In this document: in pieces, positions 170 through 57,500 of the stretch | How the letters are laid out: each line of letters opens with the position of its first letter | Numbering within the stretch: position 1 is the first letter of the stretch | Assembly (NCBI GenBank): GCA_951406725.2 | Contig: OX597827.1 | Coordinates: 80,538,001-80,602,000 of the forward strand | DNA length: 64,000 bases | From: Octopus vulgaris | Taxonomy: Eukaryota | Direction of reading: 5' to 3' | Program-made: the position numbers and the translations under genes | The notes under the pieces: generated by a model | What the model saw: only the letters and a program-made list of their open reading frames with translations | Database searches by the model: none | What the model was told of the DNA's origin: nothing

Positions 170-2876
170 CTGAAACTCCTGGTATTTCTTCATAATGTTT
201 CAAGTCTCCATGTCTACCACTTCTCTTGGATGACATTGTATCTGATGTATAGTTACAAACCATAGTAGCATTATCTTCCACAGCATCATCACTTGATGTC
301 ACCACAACAGGTTGACAGTATTTCTGTTGACAAACAAACGAAAAGAAATGTGAGAGAAGACACAAAACGATGGAAGTTACAATCAACATGGATAGAGAAC
401 AATTTAATATTGGAATGTATTATTGAAGTTAAAACATATTCAAAGAGATTTCATTGTTCACTTTTACAGAGAGAAAAATGTAATGTTTCCACTTACTGGG
501 GTAGGTTTTGGTAAAGTTCTCGACTGAACTGAAGATTCATATTTGTTCTGTAGCTGACCTTCTGCATAACATTCACTCTTGGATCTCTCAGAATAGATAT
601 TCCGCTTCACCATCTCTTCTGCATTCCTCGACATAGCAGCAACAGAAGTGTTAGTCTGGTACAACAATTGTTTCATCTCTGCTCTACCTTGGTAGGTTGT
701 ATTCTTTGTGGAAGCAGCTGTGTTATCTCTGTGTTTAATACATTTCATAATACACAGCGTTATAGAAACAACAATAGCCACTGATATTATTACTGCTGAT
801 GATACAATGATAATAACCCATGTCATATGGACCCGACCTGAAGATTGTAAAGGTCCACTCTTCGACATTGGTGACGTCTCGTTACTAACAGCCAATACCA
901 AAGTGATACTAGTTGTTGACGACTGAACTGGACTACCACTGTCCTTCACAACAAACACCAGCTCATAACTTCCAGCATCATTTAGATAAACTTGTCTGGA
1001 GAAGGATAAAGCACCACTGTGTGAGTTCATACTAAACAGCTGTTTATCATTTCCTTGTTTGATTGCATATCTGAGGAAAGCATTGTTTCCACTGTCCCCA
1101 TCAGACGCTCTCAAAACTGTGATGTCACTCTTACTCTGCGGATGGTACTGCACATTTAGCGTGTAAGGGTCACTACTAGGATATGTAAAATACGGAGCAT
1201 TGTCATTTTGATCTAGAATCTCCACAACAACATTCGCTGTGTCATTCAGAGATGGGCTTCCATTGTCTTTGACAAAAACCTCAAACTTATACACATCTTG
1301 TTTCTCTCTGTCCAATGACATGGTCGCTGAAATGAAGCCATAACTGGTGATGAGAAATGGGAGATTGGATTTTTCTTTACGCAGCAGAGAATATGTGAGT
1401 TGTCCAGCAGATCCAAGATCAGGGTCAGTGGCATTGACAAAACCAATAGGGAAGTCTTTATCTTTGTTTTCGTAGGTGAGGAATTGGAATGTATCTTTGG
1501 TAAACTGTGGTTGTACATCGTTGATGTCAGTCACTTGGATAGAGAGGCTTTTAACACTTTTAAGAGGAGGTAATCCTTTATCTTGACAGGAGACAGGAAT
1601 GTTATAGTGTCCTTGTGTTTCTCTGTCCACTGGTTTGTTTAGAATGATTTTATATTCTTTAGATCCCATTGACTGTAGTTTGAATGTATCATGTTTGATA
1701 TCACAGCTGACCTCCCCATTTTGTCCCACATCATTGTCAGTGACCATCACATAAGCAATGAAACTACCAACTTTGGTATCTTCAGAAATGGTAGCTGTGT
1801 TGTCATTGATTGCAGAAACATAATCAATATCAATAGATGGAGGATTGTTGTGTTGATTGATAACATTTACAAGAACTGTTGCTATGGAACTAAAGGGTGG
1901 GCTGCCCCCATCTCTGGCTTCTATAAACAATTCGTAGGTTTTCTTTTTACCCAGACTTGAATATTTACTTAACAAAATAGTGCCACTTGTTTCATTTAAT
2001 TGAAAATAGCTTTTTGCTAAATCTGAAGTTTTGGGGCTGAAATGGAAAGTAATTTTACCATTTTCACCAGAATCAGCATCAGTTACAGATAAAACAATGA
2101 TGGGTTTGGATTTGTGATGTGTACTTTGTATGGATATATTATATAGAGGTTTAGAAAACTCTGGTGGGTTATCATTTATATCTATTATAGAAATATTTAT
2201 GTTTAAAATACCTTGTTTTGCTGGTGAACCTCCATCTTTAGCTATGACCTGTAGTAAATATGTATCTTTGATTTCTCTGTCTAATGATTCTTTTAAAACT
2301 ATGTTAAGTGAAGAAATTCCATCAGCTCTTTTAGACACTGACAGAGAGAATGGTTCTCCATTCTTTGATTTTAATTTATATTGTATTAATGAGTTTTGAA
2401 ATCCTACATCTTTGTCTATGGCATTTGGTAACGATCTTTTTGAACCTTTTGAAATATCTTCTACAAGCTGCATATTGATTTTAATCTTAGGAAATTTTGG
2501 TTCATGATCATTGATGTCCTCTATTACTATTTTGATTTTTAATATCTTTGTAATACTTCTTCCTTTATTGACAACCACCTTCACAATTCTAGAACATTCT
2601 CTATTGAATGTGCAGAGATCTTCTGCATCCAGTGTCTGAGCAGTGTACAGTTTACCTGTTTTGGTGATGTTAAATAACTGTGCCACCTTTCGTTTGAATT
2701 GACTGAATGTTATCAAATGTTGGTCAGATGGTTTAACATTGTCTAAAAGTTTAGAATCGGCAGCAATGTCTGCTACATAAGTTCCTGGACTTCTCTCTTC
2801 TTCCACGTGGTAGGTAAGGTCAATGGTCAGGACACACTGGACCAGTGACAATACAATGCACAATGACAAGGAACAT
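170..2876 (-). CDS. Pcdh: Protocadherin g1 (6 EC + TM); 3' exon lies left of the window; 1-bp frameshift just after the ATG
   Basis: Cadherin motifs (DxNDxxP linkers, LDRE, AxDxGxP), EC1 C-X5-C (CTFNREC), TM WVIIIVSSAVIISVAIVVSITLC. Large exon acceptor ttttag| at 2928, donor CCA|gtaagt at 497; exon 323..170 (acceptor caacag|AAA, donor TCAG|gttagc). The ATG at 2876, homologous to the paralogue starts, is out of frame (ATGTTCCTTGTCA vs ATGTTCCTGTCA in g2). The track ORF begins at a GTG that follows an in-frame stop. Confidence 0.9.
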
Positions 2877-5800
2877 ATTGTTCTGGAGTGATGGTACACT
2901 TCAGGCTATCAAGAAATGTTGTTTGAACCTAAAACAGAAATATAGTTCATTAAACAATTTTTATCAAAAATAAACCACAACTTAAAATCCACAGGTAACA
3001 TCGAAATAATAAGAGGATATGAGCCTCATACTTTATGACAGTTTACTTATAGATTGAAACATATATAAAATGGCTTCAATGTGCTTAACATGACTGAAAA
3101 AAATCAAAAACTAGTTGTCAGGGAAAGTGGTATTAGATAAGTATATTGAAGAAGTTTCTTCAATACCAAAAACATTTTCCATAAGTATTTCAGAGATGTA
3201 CATGCATATGAAGGGTTTTGATCTGAGATCATGTTCTGTAACTAAAATGATCGCAGTCTCAAAGACGTATGTTGACTCAAAAGAAAGCAACAAACGCGTG
3301 CTTCATTTAAACATTTATTTGATAGCTGTTCGGTGAGATGCAGAAAGAAAAATGAAAAAGAAATGTCTGTTAGAATTGCAACATGATGCAGCTGTGAGCA
3401 ATGGAAATTTTGACAGCATATTAAAATAGGGATTTAAGTGAAGTTTCTTAGCCTGAGTGTTTCTTAGTAACTAACTTGTCTTCCAAGCTGCAATTGTATA
3501 AGAAAGTATATGTTCCAAAAATGGATGCATACAAAGCTATGAATTCATGTGTCAACTGAAAAATAGCAAGATGCACACCTACCAAGACCATGAACATAAA
3601 CCATTATTTTCATTATACAAAAGAAGTACAAATGGGTCATCAAAAGACTTGTAATGGCTACTTTAAGTGGTAGAGAATGTTCCATGTTTGGTGTTCTATC
3701 ACTTACATGACTGAATATCTAATTCCATTGCAAATTATATCAGACTGCAATTTGGTTACACTACATTTCACTGGCCGGCTGCCATGTATTTTGTTCACCA
3801 AACAATAAGGGATTAGCAGTGCATAACTTACTTTGGAGTTCATAAGCAGAGGAGCATAACTCTGCTTTTTCATGGGCTTTCAAGATGGAATAACTTAAAC
3901 AAATGCACTCTTACATCAGAGATGAATTCAATCGTACATCAAGACATATACATACTCACTTGTATGCATAACCATGAATACATACGTGCACATGCACACA
4001 TGCACATGCACACATGCACAAGCATGTGTACAGCTAGACACATTCATACAGATATATTCTTCTGCACACATACACACACTTATACATGTGTGCACAGGCA
4101 AAGCCTTCCTAACTGGATTTTCTGTCACAAAAGTCATACGAGAATACCAAGTCCATGAGCGCCTATTACTTATTATTCGAGGAAATAATCTTGTCAGATT
4201 ATGTGGCTTACTTAACCAGAGCTAACATTTTGTAACACCAACATAAAGGCCTTTTTACCACTAGCTTAGCTGGAGTGTGTGCTGCCTGGGGCACCACTTC
4301 AGTTTTCCACCCGTGGGCCGCCATAAAAGTGTCACCTGGGGTTGCCCACCCCATCTGCCCACCTCCATCTATGCTAGTGCTTTTTACCAAATATAATATT
4401 CTTTTACTGTTCACAATGGTAATAATTAGTGGCCAGTGATCAAGGAGAAAATGTATTCCATTCCGTTATTTTCTACAAATGAAAAGTTCTTAAATTAAAT
4501 GTGCATCTTTCTAGAATACTATGAATATATATTTTATACGACTTCAAAATCCTCAGAGCCTGACAAAATTACAAATTTGTATTTGAATCATAAATGGCCA
4601 GAAGAGGTGGTTGCCATCTCCAGCATCTTCAACTATTTATACCAACACTACTAATACTCCAGCATGTAGAGACTGGGTAGAATTATAATCCAATCTAACA
4701 GAATCAACATTACACAGATTTACTCTTCTCAGATGCAAACCTAAAAACAAACAGATTCCTTATTGTCTCTACTGAAACATTTTTCTTTCAAACTTACAAC
4801 ATGCATTTCAAACACTACACTGAACTCCTCCACTCTCAAACCTCACACGGTGTCTGATGATTTAAGCAACAGTAATCAAAACACATTATGATCACCACCA
4901 CTAATTTAAGCAAAACATTTGAATCAAAGAATTTATTTTTATAACTTTTATCTTTGGTAAAAGAGAAATAAACTTCAGTTTAGTCTGACATTCTCATTTC
5001 ATAGTTTTTCCTTGAAACATCTTGGTGATACTGCTTTAACAGAGATGAAGTCAGAGGTATGTTCTTTATCACAGGAAATGTTATCCTTAACAATATTAAT
5101 ATTTTCAATACTTCAGGAACCATTCCAAAAGGTTCCACAGCATCGTCCTTAACCATAGGCTACCTACATATCCCTTACTTCTATAGCTGTCTTGATTCTC
5201 ATCTGTTCAATTCAAAGAAGGATCAAATTGATCCATTCATATTTCTTACCATTTTCCGCCGATTAATTAATATTAGAGTGGTAAGGATGATGGGGTGGGT
5301 TGAACAGGAAGGACTCAGTACTGTCTCATGTTACAAGGGTGCATACGGCCAGATAAACAGGGTGGAGAATGGGTGAAGGAGAAATAGCTTGAGATGGACA
5401 GTATCAGTGAAATAAAGAGAGGTGAGGGGTGTCATGGAAATGAAGAGGGACCAGAGAGAGGGTGTTGAAGTGGTGGAGAAGCTACCAGGGCTGGGCAAAA
5501 TATTTGTATAAATGCTTGGTTGATTGGGTTTGTGTAATTGTTTGTACTTATAACACATCTGTGCACCTAAATAGGCGCCTGGCATCTTGCAGGGATTTTA
5601 CTGAACCAGTAAGACAAACTTTCTCCATATTTGGTGACTTCTAACACATTATTTTACACATCTAGAGCATTTCTTTTCTTTTCTTCCTTCAAAACCATTT
5701 TAAATGAAGAAATTTATGCCATCTCCTTTAATCCATTGTCAAACACAAATCTCAGTCAAGCTTTCAGTTTCCACATAATGTGAGATTAGAGATTATCTCT

Positions 5801-7076: not shown

Positions 7077-7260
7077 CTTTTTGATAATTATATCATTGGT
7101 TATTCAGTGAGAAAGAGAAAGATGTATTGTTGTAGAAAGATCCATTGTAAGTGCTGCTGTAATGGTGTGACAATGGCTGTTATGGTGATGGAGTAGTGTA
7201 GCACGTCAGGCAGAGAGTCTGCTGCTAGGAGAGGGTTGCATGTGTCACTGAAGTTGTATG
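7077..7260 (-). other. Conserved non-coding first exon (5' UTR) of g1
   Basis: ~185 bp block near-identical in six copies, one upstream of each gene; ends in AAAAAG|gtaagt donor. The 5' boundary (TSS) is not determined. Confidence 0.75.
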
Positions 7261-7500
7261 TGTTCTGAGTGTACGTCCACCTGATAATATTCTGTGCATG
7301 TATTTAGCCTCAAAGAAGATGTTTACTATTTACATGGATATATATTTAAATAGCTAGAATTATGTTTATACTGAAACAGAACATAATTGTTTGGGATAAT
7401 AACATTAGTGATGTGAATGCTTGGCTTTGTTAGTGAATTGTTGTGTGTTTTATCCCGAATCTGATTGGTCGAGTGATCGAAACAGGAGACCAATGAAGCT
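7261..7500 (-). promoter_or_regulatory. Putative g1 promoter with inverted CCAAT pair
   Basis: ATTGG 7464-7468 and CCAAT 7490-7494 (21 bp apart); AT-rich TATA-like tract ~7340-7352; arrangement repeated upstream of each exon-1 copy. Confidence 0.6.
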
Positions 7501-7945: not shown

Positions 7946-7946
<1 letters not shown>

Positions 7947-7979: not shown

Positions 7980-7982
<3 letters not shown>

Positions 7983-8014
7983 GAAGAGTCTATATCTTGT
8001 ATTTACATGGAGTA

Positions 8015-11000
8015 TTATACATGTTTGACTGGAGTTTCTTCACTGGACTCTTTCGATGTAGTTGCATCGTTATTCTTATATAAATTTTGATCTGGAATTG
8101 AGATTGGAAACAGGCATTACAAAATCACAGACTTGCAGATTCCATTAATTAATTGCTTAATGAAAAAGTTTAAAATATTTATTATAATAAAACATATATT
8201 CTGGAGTTAATAAACTGAAAATCTGAGCAACTTATGATATAATTACTCAAGAATACATAAATAATATGCAGATGACATCAAGCTGTACCTTGAAATAAAG
8301 AGGTCAAATCCTGTACACTATGGATCTCTATTGCAAGCAGACCTGGACACAATGCAGCAGTGGATCATGGACTGGCAACTCAAGCTGGCTGTGGACAAAT
8401 GTACCTCCATGCATTTTGGGAGGAGAAACCCAGCGTCCACCTACTCCCTCCACAACACTAGTCTCAAAAAGTCTTCAAGTGAACGTGACCTGGGTGTTAT
8501 TGTCGACAGTGATTTGCGTTGGACGAAACACATCGCTAAAATTGTCAAGAAGGCTGAGGGTGTCTTGGCATCACTCACCAAATCCTTTGTGAGCCGCTCT
8601 CTGGCTATCTATCTGCGGCTTTATATAGCTATGGTAAGACCTCACCTGGAATTTGCATCACCAGTCTGGAACCCCTATCTTTCCCAGGACATCAATCGTC
8701 TGGAAGCTGTTCAGCGACGTGCAACCAAAAGAATACCCTCCATCAGGCATTTGCCATATCCTGAACGCCTTGCTTCCCTGGGCATGGACACATTGAAGCT
8801 CCGACGTCTGGCAGCTGACTTGGCAGACACCCATAAAATTATCAACCATCGCACAAACAATAACTCTGAGCACCTCTTCAAACTCCACCCATCTAACACC
8901 TGTGGACATATTTACAAAGTCAGAAAACAGCACAGCTCCCATGACTTCAGGAAACATTTTTTCACGCTGAGAGTTGCTGAAGCATGGAACAAACTGCCGG
9001 CATCGGTTGTTAGTTGTCGGAGCACTGCATCCTTCAAAACTTCCATGCTTCCTGAGATTCGCCAACACTACACTTGATTTTCTCCCCTCCATACACACAC
9101 AAGCATGTATCTGACTCATATACTGTTCACTTTCCAGACATTTCTACATTACTGCATGTACTTTATATGCACTTTCTGACAAGTTGTGGTGCACCTGAGC
9201 ACTGTATACAATAATTTCATTATTATTATTATTATTATTATTATAATAAGACCTGTTGAGGCAAGTGTAATCAAAATCAAATTCGATGACTGGCATCCTT
9301 GCTAGCGGGGTGCAAAGAGCACCATACGAGTGTGATCGTTGACAGAGCGGCTAACCGGCTTCTGTGCCAGTGGCACATAAACAGCACCATTCGAGTGTGA
9401 TCATTACCAGCGTTGCCTTACTGGCGCCTGTGCCCATGCTTGTAGGGTGTCAAGAGCACCATCTGAGCGTGATCGTCGCCAGAGCAGCCAACTGGCTTTT
9501 GTGTCGGTGGCACGTAAAAGGGCACCATTTGAGTGTGATCGTTACCAACATCGCCTTACTGGCACTTGTGCTGTTGGCATGTGTAAAAAGATTCGAGCAA
9601 GGTCGTTGCCAGTACCGCCTGACTGGCCACTGTGCCGGTGGCATGTGGAAAGCGCTCACTACACTGTTGGAGTGGTTGGCATTAGGAAGGGCATCCAGCT
9701 GTAGAAACTCTGCCAGATCAGATTGGAGAATGGTGCAGCCATCTGGTTTGCCAGCCCTCAGTCAAAATCGTCAAACCCATGCTAGCATGGAAAGCGGACG
9801 TCAAACAATGATGATGATGATGATGAAAACACATTTATTCCATTTATTCCAAAAATTGTTGACATTAAATATTCCAGAAAAACATGAGGGTAAAAAGTAG
9901 AAATGAATTCTTCACAACCGACAATATGTTTGTTAGAAATGGCAGCTACTAAAAATCCACACTTGAGATGAAAAAACAACATAATGGTTATTAACCTGAT
10001 ACTCCTGGTATTTCTTCGTAATGTTTCAAGTCTCCATGTCTACCACTTCTCTTGGATGACATTGTATCTGATGTATAGTTACAAACCATAGTAGCATTAT
10101 CTTCCACAGCATCATCACTTGATGTCACCACAACAGGTTGACAGTATTTCTGTTGACAAACAAACGATAAAGAAATGTGAGAAGACACCAAACAATGGAA
10201 GTTACAATCAACATGGAGAGAGAACAATTTAATATTGGAATGTATTATTGAAGTTAAAACATATTCAAAGAGATTTTATTGTTCACTTTTACAGAGAGAA
10301 AATGTAATGTTTCCACTTACTGGGGTAGGTTTTGGTAAAGTTCTCGACTGAACTGAAGATTCATATTTGTTCTGTAGCTGACCTTCTGCATAACATTCAC
10401 TCTTGGATCTCTCAGAATAGATATTCCGCTTCACCATCTCTTCTGCATTCCTCGACATAGCAACAGAAGTGTTAGTCTGGTACAACAATTGTTTCATCTC
10501 TGCTCTACCTTGGTAGGCTGTATTCTTTGTGGCAGCAGCTGTGTTATCTCTGTGTTTAATACATTTCATAATACACAGCGTTATAGAAACAACAATAGCC
10601 ACTGATATTATTACTGCTGATGATACAATGATAATAACCCATGTCATATGGACCCGACCTGAAGATTGTAAAGGTCCACTCTTCGACATTGGTGATGTCT
10701 CGTTACTAACAGCCAATACCAAAGTGACACTAGTTGTTGACGACTGAACTGGACTACCACTGTCCTTCACAACAAACACCAGCTCATAACTTCCAGCATC
10801 ATTTAGATAAACTTGTCTGGAGAAGGATAAAGCACCACTGTGTGAGTTCATACTAAACAACTGTTTATCATTTCCTTGTTTGATTGCATATCTGAGGAAA
10901 GCATTGTTTCCACTGTCCCCATCAGAGGCTCTCAAAACTGTGATGTCACTCTTACTCTGCGGATGGTACTGCACATTTAGCGTGTAAGGGTCACCACTAG

Positions 11001-12695
11001 GATATGTAAAATACGGAGCATTGTCATTTTGATCTAGAATCTCAACAACAACATTCGCTGTGTCATTCAGAGATGGGCTTCCATTATCTTTGACAAAAAC
11101 CTCAAACTTATACACATCTTGTTTCTCTCTGTCCAATGACATGGTCGCTGAAATGAAGCCATAACTGGTGATAAGAAATGGGAGATTGGATTTTTCTTTA
11201 CGCAGCAGAGAATATGTGAGTTGTCCAGCAGATCCAAGATCAGGGTCAGTGGCATTGACAAAACCAATAGGGAAGTCTTTATCTTTGTTTTCGTAGGTGA
11301 GGAATTGGAATGTATCTTTGGTAAACTGTGGTTGTACATCGTTGATGTCAGTCACTTGGATAGAGAGGCTTTTAACACTTTTAAGAGGAGGTAATCCTTT
11401 ATCTTGACAGGAGACAGGAATGTTATAGTGTCCTTGTGTTTCTCTGTCCACTGGTTTGTTTAGAATGATTTTATATTCTTTAGATCCCATTGACTGTAGT
11501 TTGAATGTATCATGTTTGATATCACAGCTGACCTCTCCATTTTGTCCCACATCATTGTCAGTGACCATCACATAAGCAATGAAACTACCGACTTTGATGT
11601 TTTCAGAAATGGTAGCTGTGTTGTCATTGATTGCAGAAACATAATCAATATCAATAGATGGAGGATTGTTGTGTTGGTTGATAACATTTATGAGGACTGT
11701 TGCTATAGAACTGAGGGGAGGGCTGCCCCCATCTCTGGCCTCTATAAACAGTTCATAAGTTTTCTTTTTTCCTAAATTTGAATATTTACTCACGAAAATT
11801 TCCCCACTTGTTTCATTCAACTGAAAATAGCTTTCTGCTAGATCTGATGTCTTGGGACTGAAATGGAAAGAAATTTTACCATTTTCACCAGAATCAGCAT
11901 CTGTTACATACAAAATAATGATGGGTTTAGATTTGTGATGTGTACTTTGTATAGATATATTATACAGAGGTTTAGAAAACTCTGGTGGGTTATCATTCAC
12001 ATCTATTACAGAAATATTTATATTAAAATTCCTTGTTTTGCTGGTGACCCTCCATCTTTAGCTATGACCTGTAATAAATATGTATCTTTGATTTCTCTGT
12101 CTAATGATTCTTTTAAAACTATTTTCAGAGAAGAAATACCATCAGCTCTTTTAGACACTGATAGAGAGAATGGTTCTCCAGTCTTTGATCTTAATTTATA
12201 TTGTATTAATGAGTTTTGAAATCCTACATCTTTGTCCATAGCATTGGGTATTGATCTTTTTGCACCTTTACCAATGTCTTCAGAAAACTCTATGTTGATA
12301 TTCTTTATAGGAAAGTTTGGTTGATGGTCATTGATGTCTTCTATGATTATTTTGATTTTTAATATTTTTGAAACACTGGTTCCTTTATTGACAACAACCT
12401 TCATAGTTCTAGAACATTCTTTGTTGAATGTGCAGAGATCTTCTGCATCCAGTGTCTGAGCAGTGTACAGTTTACCTGTTTTGGTGATGTTAAATAACTG
12501 TGCCACCTTTCGTTTGAATTGACTGAATGTTATCAAATGTTGGTCAGATGGTTTAACATTGTCTAAGAGTTTAGAATCGGCAGCAATGTCTGCTACATAT
12601 GTTCCTGGACTTCTTTCTTCTTCCACATGGTAGGTAAGGTCTATGGTCAAGACACAGTGGACCAGTGACAATACAATAGACAATGACAGGAACAT
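8015..12695 (-). CDS. Pcdh: Protocadherin g2; coding exons 12695-10321, 10149-9996, 8091-8015; 1-bp deletion at ~12022
   Basis: The track ORFs 12018..12695 and 10276..12000 join if one A is restored (GILNINISVID, as in paralogues). GT-AG junctions are in phase. Terminal exon reads DQNLYKNNDATTSKESSEETPVKHV*. ~868 aa if corrected. Large-exon acceptor at 12751. Confidence 0.9.
8265..9245 (+). mobile_element. 5'-truncated CR1/L2-type LINE (RT C-terminus, 3' UTR, (ATT)n tail) in g2 intron 3
   Basis: Open frame from YADDIKLY (8265) through ERDLGVIVD, LYIAMVRPHLEFASPVWNP, LEAVQRRATKRI and FFTLRVAEAWNKLP to the stop at 9077; (ATT)n tail ~9219-9243. Confidence 0.9.
9250..9825 (+). mobile_element. 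Non-autonomous retroelement with RTE-type 3' end and (GAT)n tail
   Basis: ggcattaggaagggcatccagctgtagaaac...cccatgctagcatggaaagcggacg followed by (gat)n; internal ~60-70 bp imperfect repeats; many related copies in the window. Confidence 0.8.
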
Positions 12696-13389
12696 ATTGC
12701 TCTTTCTATGCAGGTATGGTTAAAGATATCCAAGTGTACTAAATATTGAACCTAAAAGAGAAATACATTTCTAGTTATTATCAGGAATAAATCAGTTTAA
12801 AATATACATATTTATCAGTGTAACATGAGAAATGTACAAACTGTCTGTTTTACAAAACCACATTGATTCAGAAAGAACCCAGCCATTAAAGAATAGTAAC
12901 AACTCTGTATTGTGAAATTTTATTTGATTCACTAAACAGGTTCTGGATATCTACATTCAATATTTATCCTGACTATCAAAAAGGTTTTGTTTAAAGTTAT
13001 AACAAAGAATACATTCCAAGAATGATGAAGAGGTTGTTTTTAGTTGGTACCAGTTTCTAGATCTCTGCATCAGTCTAAAGAAACGAAAACTGAGAGATAC
13101 TCAGGACATTTATTATCTTATTAATATTAAACTTCAGACTATTATCTCAATGTAATTCAGCAATTATCATTTATTATTTTATATAAATGTTATATTATAG
13201 TTTCTCAATACCTACCCCAGCTAGAGAATGCTGAATGCTCAGTTACTCTGAGAGATTAATATCTAAGTGTATGGAACAACATACAGAATCATGACAGAGT
13301 GGGTTCCGTAGATAATTTAGGAAATTTCTCTGGTTTTGTCAATAATTTATAATTATTGTTTGCATCTCTAACAGTATACTTTGTAAAAT

Positions 13390-17880: not shown

Positions 17881-18066
17881 CTTTTTTTTAATAATTATAT
17901 CATTGGTTATTCAGTGAGAAAGAGAAAGATGTATTGTTGTAGAAAGATCCATTGTAAGTGCTGCTGTAATGGTGTGACAATGGCTGTTATGGTGATGGAG
18001 TAGTGTAGCACGTCAGGCAGAGAGTCTGCTGCTAGGAGAGGGTTGCATGTGTCACTGAAGTTGTAC
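17881..18066 (-). other. Conserved non-coding first exon of g2
   Basis: Near-identical to 7077-7260; donor AG|gtaagt (acttac 17875-17880). Confidence 0.75.
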
Positions 18067-18330
18067 GTTTTGTGGGAGTACGTCCATCTAATAATATTCT
18101 GTATGTATTTATCCTTAAAGATAATGTTTGTTTACTCCTATCAATAACAATTTACATACATCTATTATACATATATTTTAATAGCTACAATATTTGATAA
18201 TAAAGGAAAATATAATCATTTGTTTAATAACATCAGTAATGTAAAGGCTTAGCTTTGTTAGAAATTTCTTTCTATTTTTTAGTGAGAATCTGATTGGCTG
18301 AATGACCTAAACAGAAGACCAATGACGATC
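18067..18330 (-). promoter_or_regulatory. Putative g2 promoter with inverted CCAAT pair
   Basis: ATTGG 18293-18297, CCAAT 18319-18323, 21 bp spacer. Confidence 0.6.
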
Positions 18331-19334: not shown

Positions 19335-22253
19335 TTAGACATGTTTCACTGGTGTTTCTTCACTGGAATCTTTCGAAGTAGATGCATCGTTGTTTTTATA
19401 TAAACTTTGCTCTGAAATTCAAATGAAAATAGATTTTGCCAGGATATCAATACGTTAATACATGGAAAGAATTGTGACATTATTTTTACAGTGTACAGCA
19501 ATTTGTACTTGTTAAAATTATTTGCAAAGTATTGCTAATGCAGTTATTAACCTGATACTCCTGGTATTTCTTCGTAATGTTTCAAGTCTCCGTGTCTACC
19601 ACTTCTCTTGGATGACATTGTATCTGATGTATAGTTACAAACCATAGTAGCATTATCTTCCACAGCATCATCACTTGATGTCACCACAACAGGTTGACAG
19701 TATTTCTGTTGACAAACAAACGATAAAGAAATGTGAGAAGACACCAAACAATGGAAGTTACAATCAACATGGAAAGAGAACAATTTAATATTGGAATGTA
19801 TTATTGAAGTTAAAACATATTCAAAGAGATTTCATTGTTCACTTTTACAGAGAGAAAATGTAATGTTTCCACTTACTGGGGTAGGTTTTGGTAAAGTTCT
19901 CGACTGAACTGAAGATTCATATTTGTTCTGTAGCTGACCTTCTGCATAACATTCACTCTTGGATCTCTCAGAATAGATATTCCGCTTCACCATCTCTTCT
20001 GCATTCCTCGACATAGCAACAGAAGTGTTAGTCTGGTACAACAATTGTTTCATCTCTGCTCTACCTTGGTAGGCTGTATTCTTTGTGGCAGCAGCTGTGT
20101 TATCTCTGTGTTTAATACATTTCATAATACACAGCGTTATAGAAACAACAATAGCCACTGATATTATTACTGCTGATGATACAATGATAATAACCCATGT
20201 CATATGGACCCGACCTGAAGATTGTAAAGGTCCACTTTTCGACATTGGTGACGTCTCGTTACTAACAGCCAATACCAAAGTGACACTAGTTGTTGACGAC
20301 TGAACTGGACTACCACTGTCCTTCACAACAAACACCAGCTCATAACTTCCAGCATCATTTAGATAAACTTGTCTGGAGAAGGATAAAGCACCACTGTGTG
20401 AGTTCATACTAAACAACTGTTTATCATTTCCTTGTATGATTGCATATCTGAGGAAAGCATTGTTTCCACTGTCCCCATCAGAGGCTCTCAAAACTGTGAT
20501 GTCACTCTTACTCTGTGGATGGTACTGCACATTTAGCGTGTAAGGGTCACTACTAGGATATGTAAAATACGGAGCATTGTCATTTTGATCTAGAATCTCA
20601 ACAACAACATTCGCTGTGTCATTCAGAGATGGGCTTCCATTATCTTTGACAAAAACCTCAAATTTATACACATCTTGTTTCTCTCTGTCCAATGACATGG
20701 TCGCTGAAATGAAGCCATAACTGGTGATGAGAAATGGCAGATTGGATTTTTCTTTACGCAGCAGAGAATATGTGAGTTGTCCAGCAGATCCAAGATCAGG
20801 GTCAGTGGCATTGACAAAACCAATAGGGAAGTCTTTATCTTTGTTTTCGTAGGTGAGGAATTGGAATGTATCTTTGGTAAACTGTGGTTGTACATCGTTG
20901 ATGTCAGTCACTTGGATAGAGAGGCTTTTAACACTTTTAAGAGGAGGTAATCCTTTATCTTGACAGGAGACAGGAATGTTATAGTGTCCTTGTGTTTCTC
21001 TGTCCACTGGTTTGTTTAGAATGATTTTATATTCTTTAGATCCCATTGACTGTAGTTTGAATGTATCATGTTTGATATCACAGCTGACCTCTCCATTTTG
21101 TCCCACATCATTGTCAGTGACCATCACATAAGCAATGAAACTACCAACTCTGGTGTCTTCCGAAAGGGTAGCTGTGTTGTCATTGATTGCAGAAACATAA
21201 TCAATATCAATAGATGGAGGATTGTTGTGTTGGTTGATGACATTTACCAAAACAGTTGCTATGGAACTGAGAGGAGGAATACCTCCATCTCTGGCCTCTA
21301 TGAACAATTCATAAGTTTTCTTTTTTCCCAGATTTGAATATTCCCTTAACAGAATATTTCCATTGGTTTTGTTCAACTGAAAATAGCTTTTAGCTATATC
21401 TGATGTCTTTGGACTGAAATGGAAAGTAATTTTACCATTTTCACCAGCATCAGCATCTGTCACAGACAAAACAATGATGGGTTTAGATTTGTGATGTGCA
21501 CTTTGTATGGATACATTATACAGAGGTTTTGAAAATACAGGTGGGTTGTCATTCAAATCTGTTACAGAAATATTTATATTCAAAATCCCTTGTTTTGCTG
21601 GTGACCCTCCATCTTTAGCTATGACCTGTAATAAATATGTATCTTTCATTTCTCTGTCTAATGTTTGTTTTAAAACTATTTTAAGTGAAGAAATACCATC
21701 AGCTCTTTTAGCCACTGACAGAGAGAATGGTTCTCCATTCTTTGATTTTAATTTATATTGTATTAAGGAATTTTGAAATCCAACATCTTTATCTATGGCA
21801 TTTGGTATTGATTGTTTTGCACCTTTAGCTATATTCTCATAAAACTCTATGTTGATATTCTTTATAGGAAAGTTTGGTTGATGGTCATTAATGTCTTCTA
21901 TGATTATTTTGATTTTTAATATTTTTGTAATACTTCTTCCTTTATTAACCACAACTTTCACAGTTCTAGAACATTCTTTGTTGAATGTGCAGAGATCTTC
22001 TGCATCCAGTGTCTGAGCAGTGTACAGTTTACCTGTTTTGGTGATGTTAAATAACTGTGCCACCTTTCGTTTGAATTGACTGAATGTTATCAAATGTTGG
22101 TCAGATGGTTTAACATTGTCTAAAAGTTTAGAATCGGCAGCAATGTCTGCTACATATGTTCCTGGACTTTCTCTCTTCTTCCACATGGTAGGTAAGGTCT
22201 ATGGTCAGGACACAGTGGACCAGTGACAATACAATAGACAATGCCAATAACAT
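19335..22253 (-). CDS. Pcdh: Protocadherin g3; coding exons 22253-19877, 19705-19552, 19411-19335; 1-bp insertion at ~22168-22170
   Basis: Signal peptide MLLALSIVLSLVHCVLT starts at 22253. An extra T (gactttctct vs gacttctct) shifts the frame after YHVEEER; the rest is the 784-aa track ORF. Terminal exon reads EQSLYKNNDASTSKDSSEETPVKHV*. Large-exon acceptor at 22302. Confidence 0.9.
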
Positions 22254-22409
22254 TATTGTAGAATGATGGATACTTAAAATCGTTTGAATATGTTGATGGG
22301 ACCTAAAATAGAAATACAAATTCATTAAAGAATTGTAATGAGAAATAAATAACAGTTTAAAATACAGAGATATCATTGAAATAATAGGAATATATAAATC
22401 TATCACTTC

Positions 22410-30007: not shown

Positions 30008-30191
30008 CTTTTTGATAATTATATCATTGGTTATTCAGTGAGAAAGAGAAAGATGTATTGTTGTAGAAAGATCCATTGTAAGTGCTGCTGTAATGGTGTG
30101 ACAATGGCTGTTATGGTGATGGAGTAGTGTAGCACGTCAGGCAGAGAGTCTGCTGCTAGGAGAGGGTTGCATGTGTCACTGAAGTTGTATG
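30008..30191 (-). other. Conserved non-coding first exon of g3
   Basis: Near-identical to 7077-7260; donor acttac 30002-30007. Confidence 0.75.
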
Positions 30192-30445
30192 TTTTGTGGG
30201 AGTACATCCATCTAATAATATTCTACATGTATTTATCCTTAAAGATGATGTTTGTTTGCTGGTATCAATAACTATTTAAATATATAGATATAAATTTATA
30301 TAAATGCAATATTCTATTGTTAAACATTAGTGTCTGGTTTAATAACATCAGTAAAGCAAAAGCTAATCTTAGTCAGTGATTTCTTTCTATGTTTCAGTGA
30401 GAATCTGATTGGTTGAATGATCGTGACAGAAGACCAATGAAGATG
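30192..30445 (-). promoter_or_regulatory. Putative g3 promoter with inverted CCAAT pair
   Basis: ATTGG 30408-30412, CCAAT 30434-30438, 21 bp spacer. Confidence 0.6.
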
Positions 30446-30892: not shown

Positions 30893-33800
30893 TTATACAT
30901 GTTTGACTGGAGTTTCTTCACTGGATTCTTTCGACGTAGTTGCATCATTATTCTTATATAAATTTTGATCTGGAATTTAGATTGGAAACATGCATTACAA
31001 AATCACAGGCTTGAAGATCTCATTAATTAATTAATTGCTTAATGAAAAAGATATAATAACAGAAACATACATTCGGAGGTTATGATCACAAAAAGTCAGT
31101 AAAAATCACATAAGCAAAAGAGTAAATGAATTCTTTGTCAGAAAATGTTGCTAATAAAATGTTGATTATTCACAAGATAAAAGATTTAAAGTATTGCTAA
31201 TGCAGTTATTAACCTGATACTCCTGGTATTTCTTCGTAATGTTTCAAGTCTCCGTGTCTACCACTTCTCTTGGATGACATTGTATCTGATGTATAGTTAC
31301 AAACCATAGTAGCATTATCTTCCACAGCATCATCACCTGATGTCACCACAACAGGTTGACAGTATTTCTGTTGACAAACAAACGATAAAGAAATGTAAGA
31401 AGACAACAAACAATGGAAGTTACAATCAACATGGATAGAGAACAATTTAATATTGGAATGTATTACTGAAGTTAAAACATATTCAAAGAGATTTCATTGT
31501 TCACTTTTACAGAGAGAAAATGTAATGTTTCCACTTACTGGGGTAGGTTTTGGTAAAGTTCTCGACTGAACTGAAGATTCATATTTGTTCTGTAGCTGAC
31601 CTTCTGCATAACATTCACTCTTGGATCTCTCAGAATAGATATTCCGCTTCACCATCTCTTCTGCATTCCTCGACATAGCAACAGAAGTGTTAGTCTGGTA
31701 CAACAATTGTTTCATCTCTGCTCTACCTTGGTAGGCTGTATTCTTTGTGGCAGCAGCTGTGTTATCTCTGTGTTTAATACATTTCATAATACACAGCGTT
31801 ATAGAAACAACAATAGCCACTGATATTATTACTGCTGATGATACAATGATAATAACCCATGTCATATGGACCCGACCTGAAGATTGTAAAGGTCCACTCT
31901 TCGACATTGGTGATGTCTCGTTACTAACAGCCAATACCAAAGTGACACTAGTTGTTGACGACTGAACTGGACTACCACTGTCCTTCACAACAAACACCAG
32001 CTCATAACTTCCAGCATCATTTAGATAAACTTGTCTGGAGAAGGATAAAGCACCACTGTGTGAGTTCATACTAAACAACTGTTTATCATTTCCTTGTTTG
32101 ATTGCATATCTGAGGAAAGCATTGTTTCCACTGTCCCCATCAGAGGCTCTCAAAACTGTGATGTCACTCTTACTCTGCGGATGGTACTGCACATTTAACG
32201 TGTAAGGGTCGCTACTAGGATATGTAAAATACGGAGCATTGTCATTTTGATCTAGAATCTCAACAATAACATTCGCTGTGTCATTCAGAGATGGGCTTCC
32301 ATTGTCTTTGACAAAAACCTCAAACTTATACACATCTTGTTTCTCTCTGTCCAATGACATGGTCGCTGAAATGAAGCCATAACTGGTGATGAGAAATGGG
32401 AGATTGGATTTTTCTTTACGCAGCAGAGAATATGTGAGTTGTCCAGCAGATCCTAGATCAGGGTCAGTGGCATTGACAAAACCAATAGGGAAGTCTTTAT
32501 CTTTGTTTTCGTAGGTGAGGAATTGGAATGTATCTTTGGTAAACTGTGGTTGTACATCGTTGATGTCAGTCACTTGGATAGAGAGGCTTTTAACACTTTT
32601 GAGAGGAGGTAATCCTTTATCTTGACAGGAGACAGGAATGTTATAGTGTCCTTGTGTTTCTCTGTCCACTGGTTTGTTTAGAATGATTTTATATTCTTTA
32701 GATCCCATTGATTGTAGTTTGAATGTATCATGTTTGATATCACAGCTGACCTCTCCATTTTGTCCCACATCATTGTCAGTGACCATCACATATGCAATGA
32801 AACTACCGACTTTGATCTTTTCAGAGATGGTACCTGTGTTGTCACTGATCGCAGAAACATAATCAATATCAATAGATGGAGGATTGTTGTGTTGGTTGAT
32901 AACATTTACCAAAACAGTTGCGATAGAACTGATTGGGGGATTGCCTCCATCTCTGGCCTCTATAAATAATTCAAAAGTATTTTTTTCATTCAAACTAGAA
33001 ATTCTAGATAAAAATACTTTGCCAGCTTTTTTATCCAATTCGAAATATTTCTTTGCTAAATCAGAAGTTTTGGGGCTGAAATGAAAAGTAATTTTACTGT
33101 TGGACCCTGCATCTTTGTCCGTTACTGACAAAGTAAGAATAGGTTTTGTCTTGTCGTGTGTGGTTCTAATGGAAATATTATAAAGTGGTTTTGAAAATAC
33201 AGGTGGATTATCATTCTCATCTTCAACAACAATCACAACATTTAACACACACTGTTTAGATGGAGAACCTCCATCTTTAGCAATAACTTCTAAATTGTAT
33301 TTATCTTTTAACTCTCGGTCTAATTTCTCTTTCAAGACAATATTTAATGATGAAATACCATCAGCTCTTTTAGAAACTGACAAAGAAAATGAATTAGACT
33401 TTTTAAGTTTATATTCAATGAAAGAATTTTGATAACTCACATCTTTGTCTATGGCATTTGGAATTGACTTTTTCATACCTTCACGATCTCCTTCCCTAAA
33501 TTTTAAAATTATTTGTTTTTCAGGAAACTCCGGTTCATGGTCATTGATGTCTTCTATCACTATTTTGACTTTTAATATTTTTGTGAAACTATCCACTTTC
33601 TTAATAATAACTTTCACAGTTCTGGAACATTCTTTGTTGAATGTGCAGAGATCTTCTGCATCCAGTGTCTGAGCAGTGTACAGTTTACCTGTTTTGGTGA
33701 TATTAAATAACTGTGCCACCTTTCGTTTGAATTGACTGAATGTTATCAGATGTTGGTCAGATGGTTTAACATTGTCTAAAAGTTTAGAATCGGCAGCAAT

Positions 33801-33908
33801 GTCTGCTACATATGTTCCTGGACTTCTCTCTTCTTCCACATGGTACGTGAGGTCTATGGTCAGGACACAGTGGACCAGTGACAATACAATGGACAATGAG
33901 AGGAACAT
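30893..33908 (-). CDS. Pcdh: Protocadherin g4, intact, ~866 aa; coding exons 33908-31539, 31367-31214, 30969-30893
   Basis: 804-aa track ORF with signal peptide, six EC repeats and TM; in-phase GT-AG junctions; terminal exon DQNLYKNNDATTSKESSEETPVKHV*. Large-exon acceptor at 33968. Confidence 0.95.
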
Positions 33909-36309
33909 TTTGGTTGCTGCTGCCTGTTGTTACTTTTTAAATATATCAGATGTTTTAGTGGATTGAACCTAAAACCAGAAGCATATTTACTTGGTTAGAT
34001 ATTATTGTAAATTAACCACAGTTTGAAAAATGAAATTATTATAAAATTAGAATTATATGAATGTATTATTTCATATATGAATAGCAAAGCATGTATGAAA
34101 AATGAAATTGTCAATGTTTCTATAAAACTGTAAAACAAAACAATTATGTACTCCGTAACATCAGAATCACCAAAGCTAGGATTAAATATTTTTAGAGCAG
34201 AATTATTAGGACTCATACAAAAGATTCACCTATAAAACTGTAACAAGATAATGTAGTTTTCCAAGATAATGTAATTTTTATGCTGAATTCTGATTAGTAA
34301 GAGTTTAACAGATTTTCGTTATTATTACTTTTATACATGTGACTATGAGTGATCTGTTGTCGTGTAATTTTTCAAGTCTGTTACCCTAACCAACACAACT
34401 GTCAAAATACTCTATCAGATCGTTTACATCACTCTGTCATACCACCAATGCAATGATAAATTGTTGTTACCTGCTTTCTTCATAATCAGCATAAAGATTG
34501 AAGTAATTATATTCTAAAGGTTCCTACAAATATCAATAGCTGATTATATTTACATTCAGTTCCATTGCTCTTCCACTTTCACACTCTGGAAGGCTCTACA
34601 ATACATAATGCATTACCTGCATACTGGAGATCCTTCTGTCCCCTAATATACTTTCTGATTCTTATTAAAAGGAGAAAAAGAAATCACTAAGAAGAAAGAA
34701 TCTATACTGAATTCCAAATCAATAGTTGTTTTACCCAAAGTTTCAGCTATTCTCCAAAGTTCCAAATGACAGTTTTATACCTTTAAGGAGACTGCTCAGC
34801 TATTCTACTTCATTAACAACCAAATATTTCCAAGTAGGCTTAATTCCCAATTCGTTTAACTACCTTGCTCTTAATTGTCTGTCACAACAAGAGTTACCTT
34901 AATTGCAAACATTCAGGCCAGGTCGCCAGGTCAGCAGCTTACATATAACTGGCTCACTTTAATTACAGAGACTCTGAGAAGCCATTCAGAAGATCAAAAA
35001 CTACATTTAATTGAAGAATGATAACTTATTATGTCTTCTGTAGGTTGAGTAGTGGACGAACAATCTGTGAAACATGAAATACTTGAAAAAGTAGAAGTGT
35101 TAGTTTATGTTATTAAAAACAAAACTTTTTTTGTTTCATTTCACAGAGAAAAGTAATGGGCATGTTTTAGTGGATTCATTAAAGTTGTTTCCCTGCAATG
35201 TGTATATATATATAAAGGGGTTTGTATGATTGTGTATAGAGGGATATATATTAGTCAAAGAAATTCCAATTTTATTTATATTCTTTATAATATTAATGTA
35301 GAATATAGAATATATAGTATAAATAGTATATATAGTAAAATGAAATGAAGTATTGATTGTCTTATTGAATAGGTGAAATACTGAATATAAAATATTAAGG
35401 GACTAGTATACTTTCTTGCATTAAAGCAGTCTTCAAAGCCCCAGGAGTGTATATATGTATGTATATATATATATATATATATATGCAGATCCTATTAGAG
35501 TGGCTAATAATTCCCCTGTAGCACAGGCGCTGCCACTAGTATCATCATCATCACCATCCTCCTCTTACATTTGTCCTCCATTCTGGTATGGGTGATCCTG
35601 ATGTAAGCCATTTGGCCAGGTTACCAAGGTTGAATGTGTTCCTCTCGCTAACCACTTATAGAAATGCACTGGGTGTGTTTTCTCATGCCACTAACAAGAC
35701 TTAAGCATAGCCCATGGAGACAGTGCAGAATAAGTCAGGATAGGGAGTAGTATAATAAAAATAATACAGATGACAGAAGGATGTGAGAGAATGAGAGAGT
35801 GAACGAGAGAGAGAGATGATGTGTGGTTGGGCAGGTTGCAAGAGGTAAGCATATTGCATGGGGACAATGAAAAGAGGAGAGATAAAATGGTGACTTGGGT
35901 GAGTGATCAGTGTGAAATGTGGGTGGAGAGGACAGTGTCAAGAATGAATGGTGGATATCATGTGAAATGATTCCAGGTAGAGAAGAACATAAGTGGTATC
36001 AGGGAAAAGTTGGTGGAGTAAGCAGTTCTGCTCAGAATTATTTACAGCAGCAGAACACAGAAGTGAAAAAGATGTTGGGTGATGGGGATGAGTGAGGGCC
36101 ACTTGTGTATGACGCACATTGTGCTTCAAGAGGTTCAGGATTCTGAGATAAGCCTGTTCCCTGTCCCCTTGTAGCAAGCTCCATTCCTCTTAAGACATTG
36201 GCACTTCTTTTTCGGCTGTCCTCATCCATATGCATCATATATCTGTACCAGTGCAGTCCATTTTACTTGTGCACTACATCTCATTCCTCTAATTCCCAAT
36301 TTTTCTTTC

Positions 36310-43175: not shown

Positions 43176-43359
43176 CTTTTTAATAATTATATCATTGGTT
43201 ATTCAGTGAGAAAGAGAAAGCTGTATTGTTGTAGAAAGATCCATTGTAAGTGCTGCTGTAATGGTGTGACAATGGCTGTTATGGTGATGGAGTAGTGTAG
43301 CACGTCAGGCAGAGAGTCTGCTGCTAGGAGAGGGTTGCATGTGTCACTGAAGTTGTATG
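43176..43359 (-). other. Conserved non-coding first exon of g4
   Basis: Near-identical block; donor acttac 43170-43175. Confidence 0.75.
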
Positions 43360-43585
43360 TTTTCTGAGTGTACGTCCATCTAATAATGTATTTATCCTTA
43401 AAGATGATATTTGTCAGCTATTTACATATATATATATATATAGATATATATAAACAGCTACACATAAAAAAATTGTTAAGTTTAATAATATCAGCAATGT
43501 GAATAGCTTTGTTAGTGATTTCTTTCTATGTTTTTAGTGAGAGTCTGATTGGCTGAATGACCTAAACAGAAGACCAATGATGATG
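43360..43585 (-). promoter_or_regulatory. Putative g4 promoter with inverted CCAAT pair
   Basis: ATTGG 43548-43552, CCAAT 43574-43578, 21 bp spacer; spacer sequence identical to g2's. Confidence 0.6.
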
Positions 43586-44392: not shown

Positions 44393-47310
44393 TTAGACAT
44401 GTTTCACTGGTGTTTCTTCACTGGAATCTTTTGATGTAGATGTATCATTGTTCTTATAAATACTTTGATCTGAAATTTAGATGAAAATAGACATTTCTGA
44501 CAAAATCCTAAAATATAGGCACTTTAATACAGATTGAAGAATTAGAGATAATTATTAAATGTCAATGCATGAAATATAAATGAAGTCAAAAAACCAGTTT
44601 ATTTATTAACCTGATACTCCTGGTATTTCTTCGTAATGTTTCAACTCTCCATGTCTACCACTTCTCTTGGATGACATTGTATCTGATGTATAGTTACAAA
44701 CCATAGTAGCATTATCTTCCACAGCATCATCACTTGATGTCACCACAACAGGTTGACAGTATTTCTGTTGACAAACAAACGAAAAGAAATGTGAGAAGAC
44801 ACCAAACAATGGAAGTTACAATCAACATGGAAAGAGAACAATTTAATATTGGAATGTATTATTGAAGTTAAAACATATTCAAAGAGATTTCATTGTTCAC
44901 TTTTACAGAGAGAAAATGTAATGTTTCCACTTACTGGGGTAGGTTTTGGTAAAGTTCTCGACTGAACTGAAGATTCATATTTGTTCTGTAGCTGACCTTC
45001 TGCATAACATTCACTCTTGGATCTCTCAGAATAGATATTCCGCTTCACCATCTCTTCTGCATTCCTCGACATAGCAACAGAAGTGTTAGTCTGGTACAAC
45101 AATTGTTTCATCTCTGCTCTACCTTGGTAGGCTGTATTCTTTGTGGCAGCAGCTGTGTTATCTCTGTGTTTAATACATTTCATAATACACAGCGTTATAG
45201 AAACAACAATAGCCACTGATATTATTACTGCTGATGATACAATGATAATAACCCATGTCATATGGACCCGACCTGAAGATTGTAAAGGTCCACTCTTCGA
45301 CATTGGTGATGTCTCGTTACTAACAGCCAACACCAAAGTGACACTAGTTGTTGACGACTGAACTGGACTACCACTGTCCTTCACAACAAACACCAGCTCA
45401 TAACTTCCAGCATCGTTTAGATAAACTTGTCTGGAGAAGGATAAAGCACCACTGTGTGAGTTCATACTAAACAACTGTTTATCATTTCCTTGTTTGATTG
45501 CATATCTGAGGAAAGCATTGTTTCCACTGTCCCCATCAGACGCTCTCAAAACTGTGATGTCACTCTTACTCTGCGGATGGTACTGCACATTTAGCGTGTA
45601 AGGGTCACTACTAGGATATGTAAAATACGGAGCATTGTCATTTTGATCTAGAATCTCAACAACAACATTCGCTGTGTCATTCAGAGATGGGCTTCCATTG
45701 TCTTTGACAAAAACCTCAAACTTATACACATCTTGTTTCTCTCTGTCCAATGACATGGTCGCTGAAATGAAGCCATAACTGGTGATGAGAAATGGGAGAT
45801 TGGATTTTTCTTTACGCAGCAGAGAATATGTGAGTTGTCCAGCAGATCCAAGATCAGGGTCAGTGGCATTGACAAAACCAATAGGGAAGTCTTTATCTTT
45901 GTTTTCATAGGTGAGGAATTGGAATGTATCTTTGGTAAACTGTGGTTGTACATCGTTGATGTCAGTCACTTGGATAGAGAGGCTTTTAACACTTTTAAGA
46001 GGAGGTAATCCTTTATCTTGACAGGAGACAGGAATGTTATAGTGTCCTTGTGTTTCTCTGTCCACTGGTTTGTTTAGAATGATTTTATATTCTTTAGATC
46101 CCATTGACTGTAGTTTGAATGTATCATGTTTGATATCACAGCTGACCTCTCCATTTTGTCCCACATCATTGTCGGTGACCATCACATAAGCAATGAAACT
46201 ACCAACTTTGATGTCTTCAGAAATGGTAGCTGTGTTGTCATTGATTGCATTAACATAATCAATATCAATAGATGGAGGATTATTGTGTTGGTTGATAACA
46301 TTTACCAAAACTGTTGCTATAGAACTGAGAGGAGGGCTGCCCCCATCTCTGGCCTCTATGAACAGTTCATAAGTTTTCTTTTTTCCTAAACTTGTATATT
46401 TACTTAACAAAATAGTTCCACTGTTTTCATTTACCTCAAAATAGCTTTTTGCTAGATCTGATGTTTTGGGACTGAAGTGGAAAGTAATTTTACCATTTTC
46501 ACCAGCATCAGCATCAGTCACAGATAAAACAATGATGGGTTTAGACTTGTGATAGGTACTTTGTATGGATATATTATATAAAGGTTTAGAAAATACAGGT
46601 GGGTTGTCGTTCAAATCTATTATTGAGATATTTATATTTAAAATACCTTGTTTTGCTGGTGACCCTCCATCTTTAGCTATGACCTGTAATAAATAAGTAT
46701 CTTTGATTTCTCTGTCTAATGATTCTTTCAAAACTATTTTAAGAGAAGAAATACCATCAGCTCTTTTAGACACTGACAGAGAGAATGGTTCTCCATTCTT
46801 TGATTTTAATTTATATTGAATTAATGAGTTTTGAAATCCAACATCTTTGTCCATAGCATTGGGTATTGATCTGTCTGAACCTTTGCGATCATGTTCACCA
46901 AACTCAATATTTACTCCTTTTATAGGAAATTCAGGTTCATGGTCATTGATATCTTCTATTACTATTTTGATTTTTAGTACTTTTGTAACACTGGTTCCTT
47001 TATTGACAACAACTTTGACAGTTCTGGAACATTCTTTGTTGAATGTGCAGAGATCTTCTGCATCCAGTGTCTGAGCAGTGTACAGTTTACCTGTTTTGGT
47101 GATGTTAAATAACTGTGCCACCTTTCGTTTGAATTGACTGAATGTTATCAAATGTTGGTCAGATGGTTTAACATTGTCTAAAAGTTTAGAATCGGCAGCA
47201 ATGTCTGCTACATATGTTCCTGGACTTCTCTCTTCTTCCACATGGTAGGTAAGGTCTATGGTCAAGACACAGTGGACCATTGACAGTACAATGGACAATG
47301 GTAGGAACAT
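44393..47310 (-). CDS. Pcdh: Protocadherin g5, intact, ~868 aa; coding exons 47310-44935, 44764-44611, 44469-44393
   Basis: 806-aa track ORF plus two spliced exons; terminal exon DQSIYKNNDTSTSKDSSEETPVKHV*. Large-exon acceptor at 47350. Confidence 0.95.
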
Positions 47311-47624
47311 GTTGATAGTTCGTCTTGTTTAAAAAATCAAATGTGTTAACCTAAGAAGAGAAATACATTTCTATTTATTATCAGAAGTAAATCATTTTAA
47401 AATATAGTTATCAGTTACATTAGAAATATGAATCTATTACTTTAGAAAACTGCATTTATAGATTTTATGAAGAAGTCAATAATTTGTTTCAATGAATCTG
47501 CAAAACTGAGAAAAATAGCAAAAGCTATGTATCCTATGAAAGAGATTTTATTTAATTCACTAAATTGTTTTTGGATAACTACACTGAAGAACAAGAATGA
47601 GAACCAGAACAATGATAACAGCAG

Positions 47625-57325: not shown

Positions 57326-57500
57326 CTTTTTTAATAATTATATCATTGGTTATTCAGTGAGAACAGAAAGATGTATTGTTGTAGAAAGATCCATTGTAAG
57401 TGCTGCTGTAATGGTGTGACAATGGCTGTATGGTGATGGAGTAGTGTAGCACGTCAGGCAGAGAGTCTGCTGCTAGGAGAAGGTTGCATGTGTTGTATGT
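57326..57500 (-). other. Non-coding first exon of g5 (most diverged copy)
   Basis: Same block with a 9-bp deletion (cactgaagt) and two 1-bp deletions; donor acttac 57320-57325. Confidence 0.7.

Follow-up and report, generated by a model that had tools for sequence, protein, structure and literature searches.

A near-identical non-coding exon, likely the first, with a conserved core in clustered protocadherin genes of Octopus vulgaris

The 186-nt block that recurs upstream of clustered protocadherin (Pcdh) genes in Octopus vulgaris is a non-coding exon, and likely the first, of 27 such genes. It is likely kept uniform by gene conversion, and a selected core inside it would serve as a shared promoter-proximal module; taken as a whole, this reading is considered probable. 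New here are the homogenised first exon that a second, adjacent array has of its own and a core common to both arrays and to singleton leaders. No paper describing the exon or the core was found in the literature; the exon may be recorded already in supplements or in public gene models that include UTRs.

The window analysed, a stretch of 64,000 nt (C14:80,538,001-80,602,000), contains the large exons of six Pcdh genes, g1 to g6, all on the minus strand (Table 1). The nearest database proteins are assigned to Octopus vulgaris, at 100% in the tail part that matched, and to O. sinensis and Argonauta hians. In 464 kb of sequence around the array, here called array A, 27 leader exons and 27 genes alternate one to one, with a GT donor and an AG acceptor throughout. 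Intron 1 measures 2.1-10.0 kb and its acceptor lies 40-60 nt 5' of the ATG in the 27 genes, one acceptor having been set by hand. The distance of 2-10 kb between block and coding exon given in the earlier note is thus confirmed, and the block was recovered at all six start positions listed there, each copy ending in AAG/GTAAGT on the minus strand as described. The indels reported for the g5 leader were also found, while the variant of the g4 and g6 leaders, described as T/C, had to be corrected to T>G on the sense strand.

Every array A gene has a private exon 3 of about 150 nt and a private terminal exon 4, and therefore no constant exons are shared, in agreement with the absence of shared constant exons from octopus Pcdh genes in the available part of PMC9068888. 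The end of the terminal exon is usually 0.5-3 kb from the next leader. Shared constant exons, or a role of the block as a downstream coding exon, were ruled out by the private end exons and by the splicing of the block forward to the next exon 2. Frameshifts or interruptions were observed in six of the 26 large exons checked, namely those of g1-g3 (497-22302) and of three genes at C14:80.60-80.63 Mb; five or six of these broken exons fall in one 90-kb stretch, and they may be assembly indels or pseudogenes. In addition, intron 3 of g2 contains a reverse-transcriptase-like ORF at 8265-9077, which we take to be a LINE-type fragment.

Table 1. Positions of the leader exons, short motifs, conserved core and coding exons in the window.
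Feature	Position	Strand	Remarks
Leader exon g1	7077..7262	-	Non-coding, likely exon 1; donor GTAAGT at 7076-7071; contigs joined at donor
Leader exon g2	17881..18069	-	A-run before donor 3 nt longer
Leader exon g3	30008..30193	-	
Leader exon g4	43176..43361	-	
Leader exon g5	57326..57501	-	Inr-like word lost in a 9-nt deletion; also two deletions of 1 nt
Leader exon g6	63615..63800	-	
TGACGTG	7202..7208	-	In 27/27 array A copies
Inr-like TTCAGTG	7246..7252	-	In 25/27 copies; contig 5' ends extend at least 9 nt past it
Inverted ATTGG/CCAAT pair	7464..7494	.	Also at 18293-18323, 30408-30438, 43548-43578, 57697-57727
Core ATCA...CATTGTCACAC...CAGCAG	7154..7199	-	Common to array A, array B and singleton leaders
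Central part of core	7165-7189, 17972-17996, 30096-30120, 43264-43288, 57414-57438, 63703-63727	-	Six window leaders
g1 exon 2	497..2928	-	Acceptor 2928, ATG 2876; EC1-EC6, TM, part of tail; frameshifted in assembly
g2 exon 2	10321..12751	-	Frameshifted; exon 3 about 9997-10149; exon 4 coding part 8018-8098
g3 exon 2	19877..22302	-	Frameshifted; exon 3 about 19553-19705; exon 4 coding part 19338-19418
g4 exon 2	31539..33968	-	Intact; exon 3 about 31215-31367; exon 4 coding part 30896-30976
g5 exon 2	44935..47350	-	Intact; exons 3-4 inside 44396-44764
g6 exon 2	59054..61479	-	Intact; exon 3 about 58730-58882; exon 4 coding part 58504-58584

Splicing was checked in seven public runs, used as contigs, six of them presumed to be RNA and one (X18) of unrecorded kind. 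The leader donor was joined to a Pcdh exon 2 in contigs of five of the seven runs (four studies, three organism labels), which supports the earlier description of the block as a non-coding leader spliced to Pcdh coding exons. Compared by eye, the sequence past the donor matches the acceptor-side UTR of two top genes in X7 (30/30), the acceptor of gene C14:80,493,431 in X14 (18/18) and that of gene C14:80,458,442 in X5 (29/30), which makes three distinct paralog types. In X6 and X11, the leader, 54-60 nt and then coding sequence were all found in one contig each; the best fit to a paralog source was only 3/5 alleles for X6, and X11 fits two paralogs at 10/13 alleles. The X18 contig spans the leader and 28 letters beyond the donor, and there was no leader piece among the X1 matches listed. 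With regard to a spliced-leader RNA, the five identified junctions all go to array A Pcdh exons, the exon is 186 nt long and the contigs are few. Apparent cross-gene joints between exons 2 and 3 of g5 and g6 were discarded as a product of identical sequence, and introns or 3'UTR without contig cover were given no weight.

The 5' ends of the contigs lie 0-8 nt from the block edge in X6, X7, X11 and X14 (equivalent to 7261-7269), and the X5 and X18 contigs begin 70-80 nt further upstream than those of the other runs. These ends fit a first exon with a broad start, but paralogs branch at the same edge and the ends may be branch points of the graph, so that the edge is a candidate start site.

A DNA search of the whole genome, with counts that are lower bounds for very common words, gave 28 matches to the leader, 27 at 96-100% and one diverged at 85%. 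All of them lie at C14 80.39-80.68 Mb on the minus strand, which is the sense strand of the genes. A transposon, the alternative raised in the earlier note, was therefore ruled out, as the 28 matches are confined to one 290-kb Pcdh array and have a single orientation. The block had no match in metagenome contigs.

The 27 copies differ by 0.73% in mean substitutions over the 169 nt before the donor, where 11 haplotypes were distinguished, so that the near-invariance first seen in six copies extends to the array. In array A, copies differ pairwise by a mean of 0-2% within the exon, by 15-32% over the 240 nt on its upstream side and, through most of the intron's first 200 nt, by 22-38%; with 15-55% in the flanks overall, the exon is the separately homogenised island that had been proposed. 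The claim that the flanks diverge within tens of bases holds only in part. Difference reaches 15-18% in the first 30 nt upstream, but a similarity of 75-85% extends to about 300 nt upstream and includes the CCAAT pair, and thus the flanks are not unrelated. This pair is located about 200-230 nt 5' of the leader exon, with both words in 25 of the 27 copies compared with 3-4 of 27 in an intron control, and a TATA box was found in one of the 27 promoters. As for the words inside the block, TGACGTG was found wherever it had been expected, while the Inr-like word, also attributed to every copy, has been lost by deletion from g5 and a second copy. The ends of the A leader at 7102-7109 and 7245-7252 form an 8-bp inverted repeat that closes a predicted fold (z -2.1); it shows no covariation, and one arm is deleted in two copies.

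Besides the leader, two further islands were found in a comparison of 26 of the 27 genes. One covers about 230 nt of EC1 (1.2% difference) and the other extends from EC4 to exon 3, including a 171-nt intron (1.4-1.7%), while EC1b-EC3 and intron 3 differ by 17% and 51%. In the EC1 island (47010-47260 and equivalents, the first ~78 residues), the proteins of array A paralogs differ by 0.1%. For EC4 to the tail, protein difference is 1.4% among 21 intact Octopus paralogs and 1.2% among eight Argonauta proteins against 10.8% between the species, a pattern that identifies concerted evolution in an old array. Rare leader variants are common to copies whose flanks are 24-35% apart and absent from sister copies at 1-2%. 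GC3 amounts to 0.35-0.36 in the homogenised parts of the coding sequence, compared with 0.23 in the divergent parts; higher GC3 in converted Pcdh regions of fish appears in the accessible text of PMC1852091. Recent duplication as the cause of leader identity was ruled out by the paralog and variant data, save for a few sister units at 1-2%.

Gene conversion between paralogs is thus the likely process that keeps the leader exon uniform. The near-identity of the whole 186 nt would largely be ordinary concerted evolution, as coding regions and the 171-nt intron are nearly as homogenised, and since that intron is homogenised to 1.7%, near-identity by itself is no proof of function. Nevertheless, the leader is more uniform than the four-fold sites of converted coding tracts (0.73% vs 3.8-4.3%), suggesting added purifying selection.

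Array B (C14:80.00-80.22 Mb) adjoins array A. Its proteins are about 61% identical to those of array A, and four-fold sites are 47-51% different. It carries 25 copies of a distinct leader sequence, 23 of them upstream of a gene and two with no gene nearby. These copies differ by 0.3-0.8% inside the island and by 23-59% in most flanking windows, with one better-conserved promoter patch at 9-10%, and unlike array A, there is no homogenisation in EC1. Judged from these profiles, arrays A and B have each homogenised their own first exon independently. Two array B leaders (C14:80,005,563 and 80,006,830) are separated by 1.3 kb, and the 60 kb that follow them contain no Pcdh exon. On another chromosome, at C10:63,175,043-63,177,301, an array B leader and its flanks recur beside a repeat as a copy of 2.3 kb at 98%, with no Pcdh coding sequence in the 20 kb analysed. 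A third array of 11 genes on the plus strand at C14:81.36-81.47 Mb carries two conserved blocks upstream, one of them homogenised, about 1.2 kb long and equipped with a GT donor of its own; the core of A and B is absent.

The A and B leaders align with each other over a core of about 45 nt alone (40/46 nt, 87%). The local score of this alignment was 61, compared with a maximum of 37 in 1000 shuffles, 19 for promoters and 26 for introns, and the binomial P was about 2e-4 after window correction. The core was found as well in five singleton leaders, one of them decayed, and its carriers are all 27 array A genes, the 25 array B leaders and these five. Its invariant letters are ATCA, TGTCACAC and CAGC. 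The distance from TGTCACAC to the donor is 96-104 nt in five of the seven leader types, 121 nt in one with a CA insertion and 72 nt in the decayed one, and a TGAC half-site, which is TGACTCA in array B, lies 30-40 nt upstream of TGTCACAC in six of the seven. Words in and near the core presumably resemble sites for Pbx (TGAT), Meis/TALE (TGACA), Sox (CATTGT), T-box (TCACAC) and bZIP (TGAC) factors; Sox-type words exceed shuffled expectation in three of the seven types.

In the scanned region, the core was not found for three Pcdh genes or fragments. A profile scan gave none above antisense background in the 11 genes of the third array or up to 20 kb upstream of 20 other Pcdh genes, whose leaders may sit more than 20 kb away. 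Therefore, the core marks one clade of about 55 genes and not the whole family. Short core patterns are not unique in the genome, with 3 off-locus matches against 4 for the control with one pattern and 12 against 5 with another. A partial second copy of the core was observed in intron 1 of one array A gene (C14:80,416,928). Selection has likely preserved this core, which is the best candidate for a common cis-element of these Pcdh genes, and its action at the DNA level as a promoter-proximal transcription-factor module is proposed with moderate confidence.

Among known systems, the core appears to work most like the BGW element of the mammalian BEX/WEX/GASP genes, while in position it resembles the conserved sequence element (CSE) of vertebrate clustered Pcdh genes. 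As reported in the part of PMC1274310 consulted, BGW lies in a non-coding first exon of clustered brain paralogs, is confined to the cluster and is maintained by gene conversion, separately from the coding sequence, its function being predicted. The octopus core likewise sits in a spliced non-coding 5' exon, and the history of that exon is unlike that of flanks and coding sequence, as seen in the shared variants and the step profile. In contrast to BGW, sequence and family are unrelated, identity of the whole exon reaches about 99% over the 27 genes here, and the consensus around the one common core is a different one in each of two adjacent arrays.

The functional analogy with the CSE that the earlier note had drawn gains support from the ~45-nt core, with its fixed position and its presence in a second array and in singletons, but not from the motif itself. 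In the excerpt of PMC7811963 used here, the CSE is a short motif at a near-fixed 5' position in most members, conserved across subclusters, as the core is; it contains a CGCT box, is bound by CTCF and sits 5' of variable exons, which are spliced to common constant exons. In the octopus core there is neither a CGCT nor a CTCF-like word; the core is inside a transcribed non-coding exon and belongs to genes with private tail exons, and thus it is not a vertebrate CSE. With a CTCF consensus and up to two mismatches, a CTCF-like site was found in 0 of 27 copies, and CGCT is absent from every leader.

Teleost Pcdh subclusters, according to the section of PMC1852091 that was available, are like array A in their EC4-to-tail homogenisation above 99%, divergent N-terminal domains and raised GC3; conversion is reported there for coding sequence only, whereas the octopus has a separate island in a non-coding exon that stands apart from the coding part by 2-10 kb. 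The octopus and squid sub-arrays of PMC9068888 share with array A a tandem, same-direction arrangement of multi-exon full genes on chromosome 14 or its ortholog. For O. bimaculoides, that text, as far as available, gives Pcdh subclusters of 34 and 27 genes, suggests conversion and reports that final exons are not shared, and unlike the present work it describes no 5' exons or regulatory elements in that portion. Chelicerate sDscam, in the part of PMC9258826 at hand, is also a protostome system of tandem neuronal adhesion cassettes and a precedent for cross-cassette splicing; its variable coding exons join constant exons, whereas the shared part in octopus is non-coding and repeated for each gene.

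The earlier note proposed that uniform leaders or promoters could give the genes equal access to a shared enhancer; in a fuller form of this idea, such uniformity would be selected so that the genes compete equally, yielding stochastic Pcdh codes in single neurons as in vertebrates. The independent homogenisation of first exons in two adjacent arrays, the conservation of the core and its spacing, and the diversified EC1b-EC3 next to a uniform EC4-tail, as in the fish clusters (PMC1852091, in the part seen), agree with it. However, upstream promoter sequence is 15-55% apart among copies, so the promoters are not equalised, and none of the 27 genes has a CTCF-like site in its promoter or in the initial 1.2 kb of its coding sequence, leaving this a speculative and rather unlikely reading. 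Its further version, in which the core would be a convergent, CTCF-independent counterpart of the CSE, standardised by gene conversion in more than 50 Pcdh genes, with equal competition for a shared enhancer and stochastic identity codes, is equally unlikely. Action in the mRNA, on uORF translation, localisation or first-exon definition as in BEX/WEX/GASP, is the main alternative to a DNA-level role and suits the exonic position just as well, but was judged rather unlikely. The core does lie within the exon, with a nearly constant distance to the donor, all 27 spliced A leaders contain three short uORFs that close before the main ATG (no leader ORF runs on into the main reading frame), and the BEX/WEX/GASP 5'UTR element is a precedent (PMC1274310, same part). 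Against it, the seven leader types have no common fold (z from -2.3 to +1.6; A leader -2.1 to -2.3), no Rfam match reached the gathering score, YCAY words in A are 7 against 7.8 expected, and uORF positions and peptides differ between arrays A and B. Three candidates of this kind were rejected: a known or structured RNA, given three chance-level Rfam hits and no fold common to the seven types; a Nova-type YCAY cluster, enriched in B types only and not in A; and a conserved uORF, as the three in A are replaced by different ones in B.

The uniform exon might also be a passive by-product of conversion seeded at open promoter chromatin, its function being ordinary 5'UTR and splice-site constraint. 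Homogenisation of intron 2 and of synonymous sites, the 9-nt deletion tolerated in two copies and the retention of the leader by broken genes are in line with this, but the island edges coincide with exon edges in two arrays and the core persists between subfamilies in which about half of the neutral sites have changed. This persistence was counted against a by-product, which is regarded as improbable. Least credible, and considered very improbable, is that a transcript begun at whichever leader is spliced to the body of a gene further downstream, so that promoter and protein are uncoupled. The donors are interchangeable, and five of 26 gaps between stop and next promoter (about 500 nt, e.g., 7495-8017) have no AATAAA/ATTAAA, so that read-through into the next leader is possible. 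In X14, a g1-type base 7 nt before the donor is joined to the acceptor at C14:80,493,431, where the assembled leader differs. However, the upstream flank of that gene is 1% from that of g1 and the variant occurs in six of the 27 copies, so an allele made by conversion explains X14 equally well. Moreover, promoter pair, leader and terminal exons are present separately for every gene, and exchange of identical non-coding leaders would leave the protein unchanged.

In the favoured reading, of a first exon kept by conversion around a selected core, each gene would be a full unit that opens with a CCAAT-pair promoter and the leader exon, continues over an intron of 2-10 kb to a large exon for the ectodomain and closes with two small exons private to it; this layout was observed, with the start site presumed. 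Conversion would spread just where paralogs still resemble each other, and hence a constrained exon would remain a converting island while divergence accumulates in the promoter spacers, in intron 1 and in the EC2-EC3 specificity region. The outcome would be a single standard 5' control cassette before many different adhesion domains.

Octopus has about 160 protocadherins. In array A, no paralog can be assigned to short or 5'-end reads, since identity is about 99% throughout the leader, part of EC1 and the stretch from EC4 to exon 3; the paralogs can be told apart by just three parts, namely the ~50-nt acceptor-side UTR, EC2-EC3 and exon 4 with the 3'UTR. Octopus Pcdh genes have no shared constant exons of the vertebrate kind (PMC9068888), and array A has no CTCF-type element. 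The core deserves testing more than the identity of the block as a whole, and as a short sequence in the 5' exon of more than 50 genes, it is a concrete target for footprinting, pull-down and reporter work.
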